Source of the DNA: an uncultured bacterium
GTDB lineage: Bacteria > Patescibacteriota > Minisyncoccia > Phycocordibacterales > UBA11359
Assembly (NCBI GenBank): GCA_903831815.1
Contig: CAIKZC010000010.1
Coordinates: 14,914-78,913, forward strand
DNA length: 64,000 nucleotides
Direction of reading: 5' to 3'
Under the pieces are notes generated by a model that did not search any database, was not told the DNA's origin, and saw nothing but the letters and a program-made list of their open reading frames with translations. Numbering within the stretch: position 1 is the first letter of the stretch; the number at the start of each line of letters is the position of its first letter. Both the position numbers and the translations under genes were made by a program. Shown here piece by piece: positions 24,133 through 64,000 of the stretch.

Positions 24133-24326
24133 TGGCGGTCTATCCTGTAGAGAAATTTGTAAGATAAGCCTAAATTAAACGGCTTACTTATGTGTGGCTA
24201 TTCGCAAGTTGTGGATATCCAACAGCTTGACTTTTGTAGCCCCATGGAGTAAGATACTAAGTGAAAGTCACCTGCGCCAGCGAAAGCTGTGTGCAGGTTT
24301 TCGTTATGGGGTGTATAATACAGGCC

Positions 24327-25004
24327 ATGGAACGAATCTGTATACATATTGATGGGGGTAATTTCTACCATTTAGTCCTCAAAAAACTCGGTCTAAAAGA
24401 GAAAGATTTTGACTTTGATAAGTTCACTCAATTTCTCGCCGGAGAGAAAAGGACTATATCTGAAATGGGTAAACGATACTATGTGGGTACAGTAAGAGAA
24501 AAAGTTGGTGACGAGAGAAGTAAAATATCGATGGCTTTGCAAACCTCACTTTTTGCACGACTGAAATCTACTAAATGGGAAATAAAAACAAGCAAATTAA
24601 GGACGAGGATCGAAGAAATTGTTATTGACCAGAGAGTACAAGATTTTAAAAAACTGCAGAAATTGGGAATCAAATCTATTGTATTTGAAAGACAGCGAGA
24701 GAAGGGTATTGATGTAAAACTGGCTACTGATCTGATTGTCGGAGCAATAGATAACAAATATGATACAGCTATAGTAGTTAGTTCGGATGGTGATCTTATT
24801 CCAGCAATTGATTGGGTACGAAATAGATTTAAGAAGAAAATAGAATACGTCGGCTTTTCTATTGCAGATCCAAAAAATCCAAAAAATTCTACTAGACCGT
24901 TGCTTTCGATGATACCAAAAACAGATATTCAACGTACTTTGACAGCAGAGGACTTAAAGCCGTTTATCATTCGATTACCGTTAACCGATGGGGAGGTTGG
25001 CTAA
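24327..25004 (+). CDS. NYN-domain (LabA-like, PF01936) protein
   Basis: IHIDGGNFYH ... GIDVKLATDLI ... YDTAIVVSSDGDLIPAIDWV; a TATAAT hexamer sits 10 nt upstream of the ATG, so the mRNA is possibly leaderless. Confidence 0.7.
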   Translation: MERICIHIDGGNFYHLVLKKLGLKEKDFDFDKFTQFLAGEKRTISEMGKRYYVGTVREKVGDERSKISMALQTSLFARLKSTKWEIKTSKLRTRIEEIVIDQRVQDFKKLQKLGIKSIVFERQREKGIDVKLATDLIVGAIDNKYDTAIVVSSDGDLIPAIDWVRNRFKKKIEYVGFSIADPKNPKNSTRPLLSMIPKTDIQRTLTAEDLKPFIIRLPLTDGEVG

Positions 25005-26285: not shown

Positions 26286-26335
26286 GCCCTTATATTTCCA
26301 CAAAGTTGGTTCCAATTCCATCTAACGTGGGTCAC
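26286..26335. repeat. Direct repeat copy 2 (matches 25694..25743); its GGGTCAC end abuts the left inverted repeat of the recombinase element
   Basis: GCCCTTATATTTCCACAAAGTTGGTTCCAATTCCATCTAACGTGGGTCAC. Confidence 0.6.
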
Positions 26336-27860
26336 ATTCAGATACTTCGGCAGTGGTGAGCGTAAAATGGGAGCGCGCCGCAGGCGCGCTGTAGGGTGAG
26401 AGGGAGGATTTCCCCTTGCGGGTGCGGACGAAAATGGAGGGCGGGCAAAATGAGATTGAGATAGTTTTGTCTTTTAGCGCGGGGTTCGTTCCAAAAGAGC
26501 GGAGAAAATCTCTCATCTCATGGAGATTTTCGCCCGTTGCCAGAAACCCCGCGCGTTTTGAATCCAAAATCCATTTCCGCAGGGGTTCGACCCAATTCTT
26601 TCTCTCGGCTCGGGCAGATGAAGATTTTGCTTGAAGCGAAAGTTTTTGACGCATGAGTGCGTCTTTTTTGGTCAAATATATCTCGCGCTCAATATCTTGG
26701 TTTAAGTACAAATCAACAAGTGCGTCTAACTTCGCTTCAAGAGTCTTCAAATCTTCCTTCATCTGCCCGAGACGATTTCCCGAAGCGTTGATTTCATCGT
26801 GCTCAAATTCTCCAACTTTTTTGAGCATATAATCTGCCCACGCTTCGGGAAACGACACTGATTGAAGCTGTTCCTTTATTTGGAGAGCGAGCGCACCTTC
26901 CTGCAAATATCCCTGACTACATTTTCCTTTCTTTTTCGTGCAACGATAATAGCGATACCTCCCGCCCATTTTTCCAGTACACCATTGAGCAGTAATCATA
27001 GAGTCACATTCGCCGCAACGAAAAAGACCGGTGAAAGGAAAATTGTGGGATATTTTGCTATGCCTCGGATGCGCTCGCTCCTCCAATCTTTTCTGTACAG
27101 CTTCAAACAGGGTCGGAGAAAGAATCGGTGCAAAGCTTCCGGGAAAAAATTCCCCATGATGTTTGGTGAAGCCGAGATACGCTCGATTGGTCAATATTCT
27201 TTTCACGGAAGCTTTGCCAAGTGGCGTTCCGGACTTTTGTGCTACACCGTGGAGAGCCAAAAACTGCGACAACGAAACTAGGGTATGTGAACCTTTTACA
27301 TATTCTTCATATGCTCGAACAATGATTTTAGATTTCACTGGATCAGGCTCTATGTTACGCGTAACGGGATTGTTCACATACCCGAATGGAGCCCGAGTCA
27401 ACCACTCTCCTCGTCGCAGTTTTTGGCGCATACCTCGCTCAACGTTTTGCTTTAAGTTGTCAGAATAATACTTACTTTGTCCGAACGCCACTTGAAGCAT
27501 AAAGAGACCATGCGGAGTTGGCTCAAACCAAAATGTCGGAAAGCGCAAAGAGACTATTTTAGAAGTGTCGACGGCATAAATGATGCGTCCACCGTCAATG
27601 CTGTTTCTGGCTAGACGGTCGGGGTGCCAGGCGAGAATTCCAACATTACCGACTTTCTCAATTTTAAGCATCATTTTGCCGAACACTTCTCTTCCGGGGC
27701 TCTTGGCGCTTTTCGACTCTTGAAATTCCTCAAGGATTTCAAGATTTTCTCTGCTCGCAAATTCACGAAGTTCTACAAGCTGGGCAGGAATGCTCATGAC
27801 TTGCTTGTCGTCATCTTCAGTACTCTTGCGAGCATAGAGAAAATATTTTGGTTTGTTCAT
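26322..27860 (-). CDS. Large serine recombinase (512 aa) of the IS-like element
   Basis: YARKSTEDDD catalytic-serine motif; resolvase + recombinase domains; zinc ribbon CGECDSM...YYRCTKKKGKC; coiled coil; last ~45 codons lie inside the left inverted repeat. Confidence 0.75.
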   Translation of the reverse strand: MNKPKYFLYARKSTEDDDKQVMSIPAQLVELREFASRENLEILEEFQESKSAKSPGREVFGKMMLKIEKVGNVGILAWHPDRLARNSIDGGRIIYAVDTSKIVSLRFPTFWFEPTPHGLFMLQVAFGQSKYYSDNLKQNVERGMRQKLRRGEWLTRAPFGYVNNPVTRNIEPDPVKSKIIVRAYEEYVKGSHTLVSLSQFLALHGVAQKSGTPLGKASVKRILTNRAYLGFTKHHGEFFPGSFAPILSPTLFEAVQKRLEERAHPRHSKISHNFPFTGLFRCGECDSMITAQWCTGKMGGRYRYYRCTKKKGKCSQGYLQEGALALQIKEQLQSVSFPEAWADYMLKKVGEFEHDEINASGNRLGQMKEDLKTLEAKLDALVDLYLNQDIEREIYLTKKDALMRQKLSLQAKSSSARAERKNWVEPLRKWILDSKRAGFLATGENLHEMRDFLRSFGTNPALKDKTISISFCPPSIFVRTRKGKSSLSPYSAPAARSHFTLTTAEVSECDPR

Positions 27861-39866: not shown

Positions 39867-40041
39867 ACATTAATAGGGAACCTGACTGGTCCGTTGTCGC
39901 ACTCGAGCCTAGGGGCTCAACATGCTATGGGCAACGGGATTAGCAGAAAGGCGCTCTTATAATTAAACAAAAACCGCATAACGGTTTTGATAGGGGAAGT
40001 ATACACTAAAATTGGGGGTTGTAAAGAGATGTTTTTAAAAT

Positions 40042-40364
40042 AAAAAAAGTCGCCGCTCCCTAGGTGGGGGCGGCGCTGAAACAGGTCTTCTCGGTTTAGG
40101 GTTGGGTGCGACGATTATGAGGCACCCGACTTCAGGATCAATGGATCCTTACTCTGGATCATCCTAGGCGGACAATATTTCTGTCCGGTACTGCCGAGCA
40201 CCGAACTATTGTGCCTGCCATGTTGGAGTCCGTAACTCCACAATATTCCTTCTACAGGAAATATCTTGTGTTTGCCCTATTCCCTTATTTCTGATCTCCA
40301 CCCGGGCGAGCTTAAACCATTTTGGGGGAATCGAGATTTCTTTCTTCCTAAAAGAACTGTTTCA
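40042..40364 (-). ncRNA. Candidate ~320-nt non-coding RNA or long regulatory leader upstream of rpsA (own promoter and intrinsic terminator, no ORF of 60 aa or more)
   Basis: Minus-strand TTGACA (40393..40398), 16-nt spacer, TATACT (40371..40376); GC-rich hairpin CGCCGC..GCGGCG + T7 at 40042..40076 on minus; ~650-bp ORF-free, GC-elevated gap between rpsA and the NYN gene. Confidence 0.35.
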
Positions 40365-40516
40365 GAAAAGAGTATATACCTAGGTTAAATTATGTCAATA
40401 GTTTGTAAATGGGGATATCTTAAGTGATATGCAATATCACTAAGTGTGTCCCTTGTGGATAAAGTAGCTTGCAACAAAATTATTTTTGATATAGTGCAAA
40501 AGTCCATCTACCCAAC

Positions 40517-41035
40517 ATGAAAATTCAGGAAAATAATTACGCATTTATTGATAGTCAAAATCTTAACTTGAATATTCGTAATCAGGGTTGGAGTTTAGAT
40601 TTCGCTCGTTTTCGTGTGTATTTAAAAGAGAAATATGGAGTAACAAAAGCTTTTTTGTTTGTTGGGTATGTAGAAGAAAATCAAGAATTGTACGATTTTT
40701 TAATTCGTTCTAATTATGTTTGCATTTTCAAACCTATTTTATATAAAGACGGTGTGATAAAAGGAAATTGTGACGCGGAACTTGTTTTGTAGGCAATGAT
40801 TGAATATGAAAAATATGATAAAGCGGTAATTGTATCCGGTGACGGAGATTTTTATTGTTTAGCAAAATATCTTCTTGGGAAAAATAAGTTGAAGTTTATT
40901 GTCATCCCAAACAAACTTAAGTATTCTGCTTTATTGAAGTTTGAAATATTTCGCGAATATCGCAGATATTTGAACGATTTGAAGGAAAAATTGGAGTATA
41001 AAAAGAAAAGGCCCCACAAGGACGAAACCTTGTAG
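40517..41035 (+). pseudogene. NYN-domain (LabA-like) gene interrupted by a single in-frame TAG at 40790..40792
   Basis: ORFs 40517..40792 and 40796..41035 are in the same frame; joined they read ...NCDAELVL*AMIEYEKYDKAVIVSGDGDFYCLAKYL, the conserved NYN core where the stop replaces a normally conserved residue (TAG vs CAG is one substitution). Confidence 0.6.
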
Positions 41036-41133
41036 GGTGGACTTTTCCATTCTTAGTACTGCTTTATGATATCAAAATAGAAACCAAGCTGTCAAGCTGA
41101 AAAATTTTTAAAATATGATACAATGTCGGTATT

Positions 41134-61102: not shown

Positions 61103-61224
61103 GACAAAACAAAACACACTTTAAAAAAGCTGCATCTTTCCTCTTGTCTAAAAGGGCTATTTTTCTAATGTATACATGCTAAAATAATATAGGTAATATT
61201 AATGCAGGCTAATAACCAATTAAA

Positions 61225-64000
61225 ATGAAAAATATTTTAAACGAAATCGCAGATGGGTATTTATTCAACAAATATTTTCATATTAAAAAACTGGTCTCAA
61301 TTATTTTGATCATTATTCTCGCGATTCCTTTTGGATTTTGGCCAACAAAACAAGCGGAGGCTGCAGATCAAACTATCACTCTAACTTCCCAAAATGACTT
61401 TAAAGCCGGAACAATCGAAGATGGTTTGGATGCGGATCAGTCAGCCGGAGATTTAAGATTGAAATATAAAACTATTACCTCTACCGATACCACGGACAGT
61501 GATTTTTATTTGGGCAAGACTTTAACTGACGGTTTTTTTATGAGTAACGTTTCATCAGCCGATGGTGGAAAAGTGACAATTAATCAAGGGTATACCTATC
61601 AGAGTAATTCTTCTCCCGCTCTTAGTAATTATCCGTATGCCTCCTTTTTAGACGCCTCCTCCAGTCTTTTGTATGTTAGCACTTGGGGTGGAGGCCTATC
61701 CGTCATTGATACTAAAGGCACAGTCAGTCCGTCTGACGACACTCTGCTGAAATCATATACTACGGCTACCACCCCGGCTATTGCTAATAATAAGGTCATG
61801 TATACTATTTTAGATGCTTCCTCCAGTCTTTTGTATGTTAGCACTAATGGCGGTTTATCTGTCATCGATACTAAAGGCACAAAAGATCCGGCAGACGACA
61901 CTTTGGTCATAACATATACTACAACCTCCACTCCAGCTATTAATGACAACATTGTGAATCATTCCTTTTTGGACGCTTCCTCTAGTCTTTTATACGTTAG
62001 CACCGGTGAAGGTGGAGTATCCGTCATTGATACTAAAGGCACAAAAGATCCGACTGACGACACTTTAGTTAGAACATATACTACAACTAGCACCCCGGCT
62101 ATTGGTAGTGGCAATGTGTATCATTCCTTTTTAGACGCCTCCTCCAGTTATTTGTATATCAGTGTTTATGGTAGCGGTCTATCCGTCATTGATACTAAAG
62201 GCACAAAAGATCCGTTAGACGACACTTTAGTTAAAACATATACTAAAGCTAGCAGCCCGGCTATTGGAAGTAATAATGTCGAGCATTCCTTTTTAGACGC
62301 CTCCTCCAGTCTTTTGTATGTTAGCACTTGGGGTGGCGGTCTATCCGTCATTGATACTAAAGGTACAAAAAGTGCGGCTGACGACACTTTGGTTAGATCG
62401 TATACCACAACTAGTACTCCAGGTATTAGTGACGATAATACTTATTCTACTTATTTGGACGCTACCTCCAGTCTTTTGTATGTTAGCAATTATGGCGGTT
62501 TATCGGTTGTTAGCTTAAATAATCTTTACAACACCCGAGGTGTATATAACAAAACTGTATCAGACGATAAAACTAATTTTTGGCAAACTAAAACCGAAAT
62601 GCCATCAGCAGTACTGGCTGCTGGAAGTGCGGTAATTGGCGACACAATATATGTTATCGGAGGAATGGATAGTGATAGCAGTCCGGTTAATACCGTGTAT
62701 GCTTATGATACTAAAACTAATACTTGGACAACCAAAGCACCACTTCCGGCAGAACGATCCAATGTTTTAGTCGGAGTAATAGGTGGTAAATTGTATGTAG
62801 CTGGTGGAAAGAATTCTGATGGAGATGCCACCAAAACTGTATATGAATATAATCCCACTTCCAATGCGTGGGCGACTAAAACCTCTATGTCACAAGATAG
62901 GATTGGTCCTGTAGGCGGAGTCTATAATGGCAAGCTGTACGTAGGAGGCGGGATGAATAGTTCGTGCGGGGTAAGTGCGTCAAGTATTGAGGAGTATAAT
63001 CCTGATCTAAATACTTGGACTACAAAAACTCCGGCACCGAGCAAAAAACTCGGCAGTGCAACCGCCCAATTTATTAACGGAAAGTTATATGTCGCGGGTG
63101 GGCAGAGTTGTAGTCCATTATCTGACTCATTACTAATATATGATGTGGCGACCGATTCATGGACTACGGGTGCTCCTCTTCCGTTTCATAGAGTTGGGGG
63201 AACATCCGCCGTGCACGATGGCAAGCTATTGTATATTGGTGGATCGGATGGTGTTAATGTTCATTCAGATATGTATATTTATGACCCCGTAACGGATATT
63301 TGGAATTTTTTTAACAATCTTCCGCAAGCTAGGCACAGAGCAATAGCTGAAATTGTTAACGGTGATCTGTATGTGATTGGGGGAGCATTAGATGTTTATG
63401 GCGAAATAACAAATATCACCTACAAACTCCCTTCGACCTATCTCTCCGACACATATCAAAAAAATGCATACAGTCAATTATCTTGGGCGGCCACTACTCC
63501 TTCCGGCACGTCAGTGGAGTTACTCTACTCTTTTGATGACGGAAAAACCTACACCAGTCTTGGCACTACTCCGGGCGACTTCTATCTCCCACCAAACAGA
63601 AGTTACGACTTAACCTACAAAGCTATCCTTTCAACTGACAACACTTCAGTTACTCCAAGTCTGGATAGTGTAACTGTCAAATATGCGCAAGGTGAAAACG
63701 GTCTCTACGCCACATCTTCCGCTGCTTTCACATCCGCTATTGTAGATTTCGGATCGGGACGAGATACTGGAAGATTTATCGCCGACGCCACAACAACAGC
63801 CAGCACTTCCATCGCATATTCCTTCCGTTCCGGATCTACCGCGACACCGGATGGAACATGGACAGGTTGGCAAGTGATCACAGATACATTGCCTGCATAC
63901 TCTCGATACGGTCAGGTCAAAGCTACCCTCAGCACCACCGACCTATCACTCACCCCCACACTTTCCACTCTCACATTTACAACCGACGAGACTGTACCAG
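61225..64000 (+). CDS. Very large secreted/surface protein, 3'-truncated at window end: signal anchor, six tandem ~53-aa repeats, six Kelch-type beta-propeller blades, further S/T-rich domain
   Basis: Hand translation shows an open frame from ATG 61225 to the window end (no stop; absent from the ORF track for that reason); MKNILNEIADGY...IILIIILAIPFGFWPTKQAEA signal; repeats LDASSSLLYVSTWGGGLSVIDTKGTKDP.DDTLV.TYTTTSTPAI; Kelch blades (IYVIGG...W...PLP, KLYVAGG...). Confidence 0.6.
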   Translation, partial: MKNILNEIADGYLFNKYFHIKKLVSIILIIILAIPFGFWPTKQAEAADQTITLTSQNDFKAGTIEDGLDADQSAGDLRLKYKTITSTDTTDSDFYLGKTLTDGFFMSNVSSADGGKVTINQGYTYQSNSSPALSNYPYASFLDASSSLLYVSTWGGGLSVIDTKGTVSPSDDTLLKSYTTATTPAIANNKVMYTILDASSSLLYVSTNGGLSVIDTKGTKDPADDTLVITYTTTSTPAINDNIVNHSFLDASSSLLYVSTGEGGVSVIDTKGTKDPTDDTLVRTYTTTSTPAIGSGNVYHSFLDASSSYLYISVYGSGLSVIDTKGTKDPLDDTLVKTYTKASSPAIGSNNVEHSFLDASSSLLYVSTWGGGLSVIDTKGTKSAADDTLVRSYTTTSTPGISDDNTYSTYLDATSSLLYVSNYGGLSVVSLNNLYNTRGVYNKTVSDDKTNFWQTKTEMPSAVLAAGSAVIGDTIYVIGGMDSDSSPVNTVYAYDTKTNTWTTKAPLPAERSNVLVGVIGGKLYVAGGKNSDGDATKTVYEYNPTSNAWATKTSMSQDRIGPVGGVYNGKLYVGGGMNSSCGVSASSIEEYNPDLNTWTTKTPAPSKKLGSATAQFINGKLYVAGGQSCSPLSDSLLIYDVATDSWTTGAPLPFHRVGGTSAVHDGKLLYIGGSDGVNVHSDMYIYDPVTDIWNFFNNLPQARHRAIAEIVNGDLYVIGGALDVYGEITNITYKLPSTYLSDTYQKNAYSQLSWAATTPSGTSVELLYSFDDGKTYTSLGTTPGDFYLPPNRSYDLTYKAILSTDNTSVTPSLDSVTVKYAQGENGLYATSSAAFTSAIVDFGSGRDTGRFIADATTTASTSIAYSFRSGSTATPDGTWTGWQVITDTLPAYSRYGQVKATLSTTDLSLTPTLSTLTFTTDETVP
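61640..62520 (+). repeat. Six tandem ~159-165-bp coding repeats inside the large surface-protein gene
   Basis: Recurrent ttagacgcctcctccagtcttttgtatgttagcac...gtcattgatactaaaggcacaaaagatcc units; they explain the spurious antisense ORFs 61629..61952 and 62166..62408. Confidence 0.75.

Follow-up and report, generated by a model that had tools for sequence, protein, structure and literature searches.

The split NYN gene and its candidate antisense RNA

The window (the entire 64,000-nucleotide stretch of DNA that was analyzed) contains on its plus strand two open reading frames (40517..40792 and 40796..41035) that lie in one frame and, as proposed in the preliminary description, jointly encode a single NYN/LabA domain, since the match to the Pfam NYN family (PF01936) spans the stop codon that separates them (Table 1). 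The joined 172-residue product matches PF01936 over residues 10-130 with a score of 41.8 bits (E 2e-10; cutoff 24.2); scored singly, the halves reach 14.2 and 18.5 bits, both below the cutoff. The product is also matched by the PADLOC NYN model (E 9e-8). Beyond the TAG codon at 40790-40792 the frame continues unchanged with GCA, an ATG at 40796 and 78 further sense codons, and this ATG encodes the invariant Met94 as well as supplying the start codon of the second reading frame. Both products have been called in public assemblies, the exact 91-residue product on 9 contigs and the 79-residue product likewise on 9. Judged by its sequence, the gene is that of a LabA-like NYN (PIN-like) predicted ribonuclease of Patescibacteria. 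Its putative promoter, an extended -10 element, was not reported by a consensus promoter scan because of its 15-nt spacer.

Table 1. Positions of the features of the NYN gene and of the candidate antisense RNA gene in the window.
Feature	Position	Strand	Remarks
Putative NYN promoter, extended -10 TGaTATAGT	40487..40495	+	Read from sequence; weak TTGCAA 15 nt upstream
NYN codons 1-91 (N-terminal fragment)	40517..40789	+	ATG at 40517; bears conserved Asp12 and Asp86
Premature TAG, codon 92	40790..40792	+	Gln or His in homologues
NYN codons 93-172 and natural TAG stop (41033-41035)	40793..41035	+	GDGD motif (Asp109, Asp111)
Candidate antisense sRNA, ~60 nt	40998..41062	-	5′ single-stranded tail, two-part hairpin, U-tail
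Predicted terminator hairpin CCCUACAAGG-UUUCGU-CCUUGUGGGG, then CCUUUUCUUU	41012..41037	-	Consensus terminator scan; covariation
Predicted sRNA promoter, sigma-70 type: TTGACA, 18 nt, TG-n-TATCAT	41066..41095	-	11 of 12 consensus matches, with TG extension

A search of 5.8 billion proteins returned at least 8000 relatives of the NYN product, the best 120 of which are 165-187 residues long, share 66-81% identity with it and come almost all from Patescibacteria. Among 34 close homologues (67-81% identity, 172-183 residues) 48 residues are invariant, all of which are kept in the window protein; the list is identical with or without the latter, and therefore no invariant residue has been lost. Asp12, Asp86, Asp109 and Asp111 are invariant in all 35 sequences (the homologues and the window protein). 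In the NYN/LabA-like family four conserved acidic residues are predicted to bind a metal ion (PMC5499597), and in the same work the NYN.COG1432 cluster is given as ‘function unknown’. A one-residue deletion and a few unusual residues in the window protein are shared by its closest homologue (P0001, 78% identical), whose AF2 model (pLDDT 81.6) has 2qip as its top Foldseek match (E 2.8e-7, probability 1.0, TM 0.60). A profile match of the family to 2qip (E 1.3e-11) also aligns the motifs, and a PIN-like alpha/beta fold like that of 2qip is accordingly predicted for the protein. The resemblance to LabA-like NYN proteins and to 2qip (VPA0982 of Vibrio parahaemolyticus) thus extends to the Pfam match, the profile, the fold and the four aspartates, whereas the present proteins differ in forming a tightly conserved Patescibacteria subfamily (57-81% identity across classes), in consisting of a single domain of ~172 residues without OST-HTH or another partner, and in the predicted RNA gene at the 3′ end. 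Members of the family are also found in records labelled Emticicia (Bacteroidota), Sedimentisphaerales, Planctomycetaceae and ‘Gammaproteobacteria’ MAGs (L081, L078, L086, L042 and similar), a distribution that points to horizontal transfer or to mis-binning of contigs.

On the minus strand, the sequence predicts a small RNA gene, not mentioned in the preliminary description, that has a promoter and a terminator of its own and lies antisense to the last ~12 sense codons of the NYN gene, its stop codon and its 3′ flank. The DNA of the terminator hairpin, which is probably a bidirectional terminator, encodes the residues ...RPHKDETL* on the plus strand. When the 3′ ends of 80 loci are aligned, nucleotide conservation runs past the NYN stop codon, and in 50 aligned loci the promoter pattern TTGACn-17-TGnTAnnAT is kept at a fixed distance. 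The minus-strand consensus consists of TTGACn, 17 nt, TGnTAnnAT and ~7 nt, followed by an RNA beginning with UAUCACCAAYGG, for which the full consensus is UAUCACCAAYGG-GAAAAG-AUCA-CCCUAUAAGG-UUUCGU-CCUUAUGGGG-C-CUUUUC-UUUUU.

Support for this RNA comes from its predicted structure of 17 pairs, in which 95.6% of cells are paired across 50 sequences, compared with 45-71% when the partners are slid. Compensatory changes on both sides occur in 9 pairs (59 cells), and none of 500 shuffles reaches the observed values of pairing and covariation. Furthermore, two positions are G.U pairs in 42 and 33 of the 50 sequences on the minus strand only; they would be A.C mismatches on the plus strand, and the folded molecule is therefore the minus-strand RNA. 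With a covariance model of the RNA (R1), the minus strand of the window reaches 73.2 bits (E 1.9e-14) versus 16.6 bits for the plus strand, and the model matches antisense to the NYN 3′ end at 77 of the 80 family loci, 27 of which lie outside the model alignment. One of the misses (L072) is cut by a contig end; the other two (L078 and L086) are Planctomycetota-type records, in which a reading of the sequence suggests a diverged hairpin of the same layout. The minimum free energy of the window sRNA is -22.4 kcal/mol (z -3.5). The RNA has no match in Rfam, even at E≤1, and the literature searched contains nothing relevant that connects NYN or LabA genes to the Patescibacteria (CPR), to an antisense RNA or to antitoxins.

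As a consequence of the overlap, the complement of the sRNA terminator hairpin and U-tail (window 41000-41035) codes for the ‘conserved’ C-terminal peptide KKKRPHKDETL. At L043, L044, L046, L051, L052, L069 and L086 a stop codon lies within this stretch and nucleotide conservation persists beyond it; the peptide seems conserved even where it is interrupted because the same DNA is the sRNA gene. In the window, the gene and its promoter appear structurally intact. The tail of the window sRNA, GUACUAAGAAUGG (41049-41062), is the strongest departure in the alignment from the near-invariant UAUCACCAAYGG and deviates at 4 of the 6 near-invariant AUCACC bases. The tails of the nearest relatives (L008-L010) deviate as well; the departure in the window could reflect clade-specific variation or an early relaxation following loss of the nuclease. 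The consensus AUCACC is identical to part of the 3′ terminus of 16S rRNA, GAUCACCUCCUUA. An attC-like recombination site was considered for the hairpin and rejected, as a reading of the sequence shows no GTTRRRY/RYYYAAC core motifs and a transcript is what the conserved promoter speaks for. An association with phages was likewise rejected, the sRNA pattern having a single match in 2.9 million viral contigs.

The window contains a second NYN reading frame (24261/24327..25004; PF01936, E 1.7e-13), for which the earlier claim of an intact gene in a mobile region holds, in view of the PF01936 match and of a serine recombinase nearby. It was rejected as a backup copy of the split gene, since it falls in an unrelated subfamily whose resemblance is confined to the surroundings of the GDGD motif. 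For its product (24261-25004) PADLOC gives the candidate defence family HEC-09 (E 8e-17), and 1.3 kb separates the gene from a large serine recombinase gene (26322-27860; Resolvase, Recombinase and Zn_ribbon_recom domains), the two being surrounded by zinc-ribbon, DUF805 and NUDIX genes; the region is consistent with a mobile island. Upstream of the split NYN gene, a 650-nt gap free of reading frames contains, on the minus strand, a strong promoter-like sequence (TTGACA, 16 nt, TATACT; 40398..40371). The minus strand of 40035-40398 would form one closed multibranch fold of ~290 nt and, behind it, a GC-rich hairpin bearing a U7 run (MFE -127.6 kcal/mol versus -101.6 for shuffled sequences, z -5.2); Rfam gives no match to it at E≤1, a tmRNA is not found there, and it is a candidate structured RNA of ~320 nt. 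Finally, a single long reading frame on the plus strand (~61200-64000), which runs off the end of the window, probably encodes a large surface protein; a 162-nt unit is repeated in it five to six times in tandem (61635-62490), and Kelch-like repeats with a length of 144-147 nt come next (62560-63032).

The amber codon and other nonsense alleles of the family

The preliminary description had predicted that the amber codon replaces a conserved polar residue and arose from CAG by one transition, and both predictions agree with the family. In the alignment with the 34 close homologues, the residue in the column of the stop is mostly Gln and otherwise His, and codon 92 at 80 genome loci is CAG (26), CAA (24), CAC or CAT (19), TGG (6) or another codon (4), so that a single C to T transition from CAG is the simplest origin of the TAG. 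Residue 92 is non-catalytic; it is located six residues past the invariant Asp86 of the GNCDAE motif and, in the model of P0001, inside a helix (residues 87-96).

The best reading of the locus, and in our judgment a highly probable one, is a young inherited nonsense allele in the NYN half of a two-gene cassette of NYN nuclease and RNA, the RNA half being intact. An inherited C to T change would have converted CAG (Gln92) to TAG in the ribonuclease gene, and translation would end after 91 residues, partway along the helix behind the catalytic Asp86. As the stop parts Asp12 and Asp86 from Asp109 and Asp111, the enzyme would be absent or, at most, produced in trace amounts. The mutation would be young, because nothing else in the gene has decayed. 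Most likely, then, a GC to AT transition disabled the nuclease gene and the allele subsequently spread through the population.

Evidence that the allele is real is provided by six contigs from separate ENA assemblies, these being the contigs for which DNA was available, all of which read TAG at this codon and are 99.95-100% identical to the window at the DNA level. They derive from at least three named samples (SAMEA6872770, SAMEA6872773 and SAMEA6872781) and follow two styles of contig naming (‘k141’ and ‘scaffold’). One contig genotype (L001/L006) differs from the window at two SNPs, 39427 and 41075, and keeps the TAG; the allele is therefore common to at least two genotypes. The second of these SNPs (A to C) falls in the promoter spacer of the antisense RNA. 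No intact NYN allele of more than 81% identity is present among the matches listed from the search of 5.8 billion proteins, and a metagenome scan with a 30-nt pattern, having N at the first stop position, found no match to a CAG allele of the same strain. Recent pseudogenisation through CAG to TAG, one of the causes put forward at the outset, is thus supported by the presence of TAG in all six contigs and by the otherwise intact domain.

Also significant is the observation that such alleles recur in the family, with premature stops in 6 of 146 other distinct near-full-length genes from genome and metagenome contigs. These are TAA at residue 14 (L049), TAG, TGA and TAG at residue 25 (L071, L091/L096 and L174, respectively), TAA at residue 63 (L139) and TAA at residue 92, the very codon affected in the window, in a lineage that is 68% identical (L092/L206). 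All six are GC to AT transitions at Gln or Trp codons, and the four sites hit (residues 14, 25, 63 and 92) are those with the four largest shares of the transition-to-stop opportunity (22, 11, 11 and 8%). The recurrence at codon 92 needs no special explanation, because the site is rich in such opportunity. The broken gene is an ordinary unitary pseudogene for which no special mechanism is required: it resembles other unitary pseudogenes in having one premature stop in a conserved domain, reproducible across samples and without evidence of recoding, and is unlike them only in that ~4-5% of the sampled family members have similar young nonsense alleles. For such a conserved protein this share, which is taken among family genes alone, looks high.

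The allele may be leaky rather than null, in that low-level UAG readthrough by tRNA-Gln would restore the wild-type residue, and re-initiation could take place at the ATG 4 nt past the stop (40796). The gene would then still function, either by near-cognate readthrough or by re-association of fragments 1-91 and 94-172 after termination and reinitiation, which we consider unlikely. The TAG GCA ATG context with an AGG just upstream would suit reinitiation, as would the independent lineage L092/L206, in which codon 92 is likewise a stop with the ATG downstream of it; such recurrence is, however, expected from the 8% of the transition-to-stop paths that fall at this codon (two of seven events), and the stop in L092 is TAA, not TAG. 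Similarly, both halves of the window gene are otherwise perfectly conserved, but the break falls mid-helix, between catalytic residues, and the family members broken at residues 14, 25 and 63 have no restart codon after the stop. The mid-helix position and these restart-less breaks make residual function less likely.

A programmed recoding, in which a reassigned code or a suppressor tRNA would give TAG the meaning of an amino acid and leave the gene intact, is very improbable. The remainder of the reading frame is intact, as this would require, and in reassigned codes TAG most often stands for Gln. In the window, however, TAG is an ordinary terminator. It ends 20 (~34%) of the 59 large non-overlapping reading frames (TAA 35, TGA 4), and it does so at family ends: the TAG of the NYN gene itself is placed exactly at the usual family C-terminus, ...KDETL, and a class-V aminotransferase gene (Aminotran_5) that is complete over profile positions 2-371 of 371 terminates at TAG. 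The preliminary description had called for a scan for further in-frame TAG codons; carried out on the 64-kb window as a screen for same-frame pairs separated by a single stop, it found no coding pair split by TAG other than the NYN pair and no sign of recoding, the remaining pairs being antisense shadows or adjacent distinct genes. A reading frame of ~900 codons at the end of the window has no internal stop, and none of the 11 tRNAs in the window has the anticodon CUA. In addition, the equivalent breaks in relatives are TAA and TGA as well as TAG, which argues against recoding that is specific to TAG. Recoding is thus already largely refuted, and the programmed readthrough that had been suggested earlier is not supported, given the normal TAG stops, the lack of a second in-frame TAG in the window and the TAA and TGA breaks in sister genes.

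A sequencing or assembly artefact concealing a true C, the third cause named in the preliminary description, is hardly credible and has nothing positive in its favor beyond contig breaks in or near the gene (ends at 40975, a start at 40754) that mark the region as hard to assemble, whereas the same base is read in six contigs of separate origin, one of them a distinct genotype, the site at 40790 lies outside any homopolymer, and the CAG version is absent from the record in both searches; with this agreement and no CAG record, assembly or random sequencing error is very unlikely, although a minority CAG allele may occur within the population. The breaks concern contigs L007, L003 and L004, which start or stop within the NYN gene, two of them ending exactly at 40975, and may arise from the conserved 3′ block, which is common to co-occurring Patescibacteria and would tangle assembly graphs.

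Genomic association of the nuclease and RNA genes and comparison with known systems

The neighborhood of the NYN gene is not conserved, as no neighbor family occurs in more than 7 of 81 loci, and the cluster present at 7 loci is, in the example shown, an antisense reading frame overlapping the NYN gene. With flanking genes that are not conserved, the pair of NYN and RNA genes is therefore autonomous. A metagenome search with the 5′ part of the RNA found an NYN homologue in the expected antisense position at 81 of the 115 sites with enough flanking sequence; about a dozen metagenome sites match the pattern only, without a full model match.

At ~16 sites the RNA occurs without NYN, either beside NYN remnants with large internal deletions (L148, L135, L112 and L157, for example) or with no trace of NYN (such as L098, L113, L122 and L137). 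Extra tandem RNA copies adjoin the NYN gene at L107, L151, L160, L115 and L190, and tandem arrays of two or three copies, every one with a separate promoter, occur at sites that include L008 (1407-1469), L107, L151 and L157. A separate copy is found beside a distant NYN paralogue of 37% identity (L036, 6275-6338). The promoter is kept in orphan and tandem copies alike; it agrees with the consensus at 8-11 of 12 positions (in most copies 9-11), and its distance is usually unchanged. An intact NYN gene lacking the RNA gene was not found among 80 sampled family loci. The RNA thus survives without the nuclease, and in this sample the intact nuclease is not seen without the RNA, an asymmetry that is predicted by a dependence of the toxin/antitoxin type.

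It is possible, if only as a tentative proposal, that the NYN gene and the convergent ~60-nt RNA form an undescribed, phylum-wide toxin-antitoxin-like (nuclease/RNA-inhibitor) cassette, of which the amber allele would be a snapshot of loss. In such a cassette the RNA would converge on the NYN gene from the opposite strand and have the terminator hairpin in common with it, and would restrain the nuclease as an antisense repressor of the mRNA or as an RNA decoy for the protein. The NYN half would be lost repeatedly, by nonsense mutation or deletion, with the RNA half persisting, sometimes alone or in several copies; loss of the nuclease would then be a tolerated route of decay for a type I (or type III-like) toxin-antitoxin pair. 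Two forms of base pairing were considered and rejected. Pairing of the NYN 5′ UTR with the sRNA, suggested by a 9-nt identity in the window, is not conserved, the longest common substring averaging 6.4 versus 6.3 for shuffled sequences over 76 loci. Pairing between the 5′ tail of the sRNA and the coding region of the NYN gene, that of the GDGD codons among it, scores no better than with shuffled tails (7.09 versus 6.99). Simple cis-antisense pairing does not account for the near-invariance of the 5′ tail and loop, which may be recognized by a protein.

Type I loci with a convergent 3′ overlap include par/Fst (RNA I-RNA II, Enterococcus pAD1), txpA/RatA and bsrG/SR4 (Bacillus subtilis). The resemblance of the predicted NYN-RNA arrangement to the par/Fst and txpA/RatA type comprises convergent genes with a 3′ overlap and a bidirectional terminator, an RNA with its own strong promoter in an autonomous pair, and a protein half that is often inactivated while an orphan RNA survives. 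In contrast to these loci, the NYN protein is a soluble predicted RNase of 172 residues rather than a short hydrophobic peptide, the sequence of its RNA is conserved across the phylum rather than diversified, and no second pairing site was found in the NYN 5′ UTR or coding region. A small hydrophobic toxin (<60 residues), which is a criterion for type I systems, is thus not what this 172-residue soluble domain represents. The classical type I toxins are small membrane peptides, with SymE and RalR as nuclease exceptions, and in SymE/SymR and RalR/RalA a nuclease toxin is checked by a small RNA. The overlap of SymR with its target is at the 5′ end, and RalA, which depends on Hfq, pairs inside the coding region, whereas the NYN-linked RNA overlaps the 3′ end. 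VapC, a type II toxin, is an RNase with a PIN-like fold, and the VapC antitoxins are proteins. No sequence homology to SymE/SymR, RalR/RalA or VapC was found here.

For annotation, these results serve as a warning that nonsense alleles of the NYN family are real and recurrent rather than assembly noise. The stop codon is ordinary, and the parts worth following up are the RNA gene and the pattern of nuclease loss. The predicted RNA gene, which is in neither Rfam nor the literature searched, would be a further small-RNA family in a phylum with very few known ones, and one of the most conserved small proteins of the Patescibacteria, with its at least 8000 database relatives, would have a structured RNA gene at the 3′ end of its own gene. 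For this uncharacterised nuclease family, the pairing offers a testable hypothesis, namely that the nuclease may be held back by an RNA.
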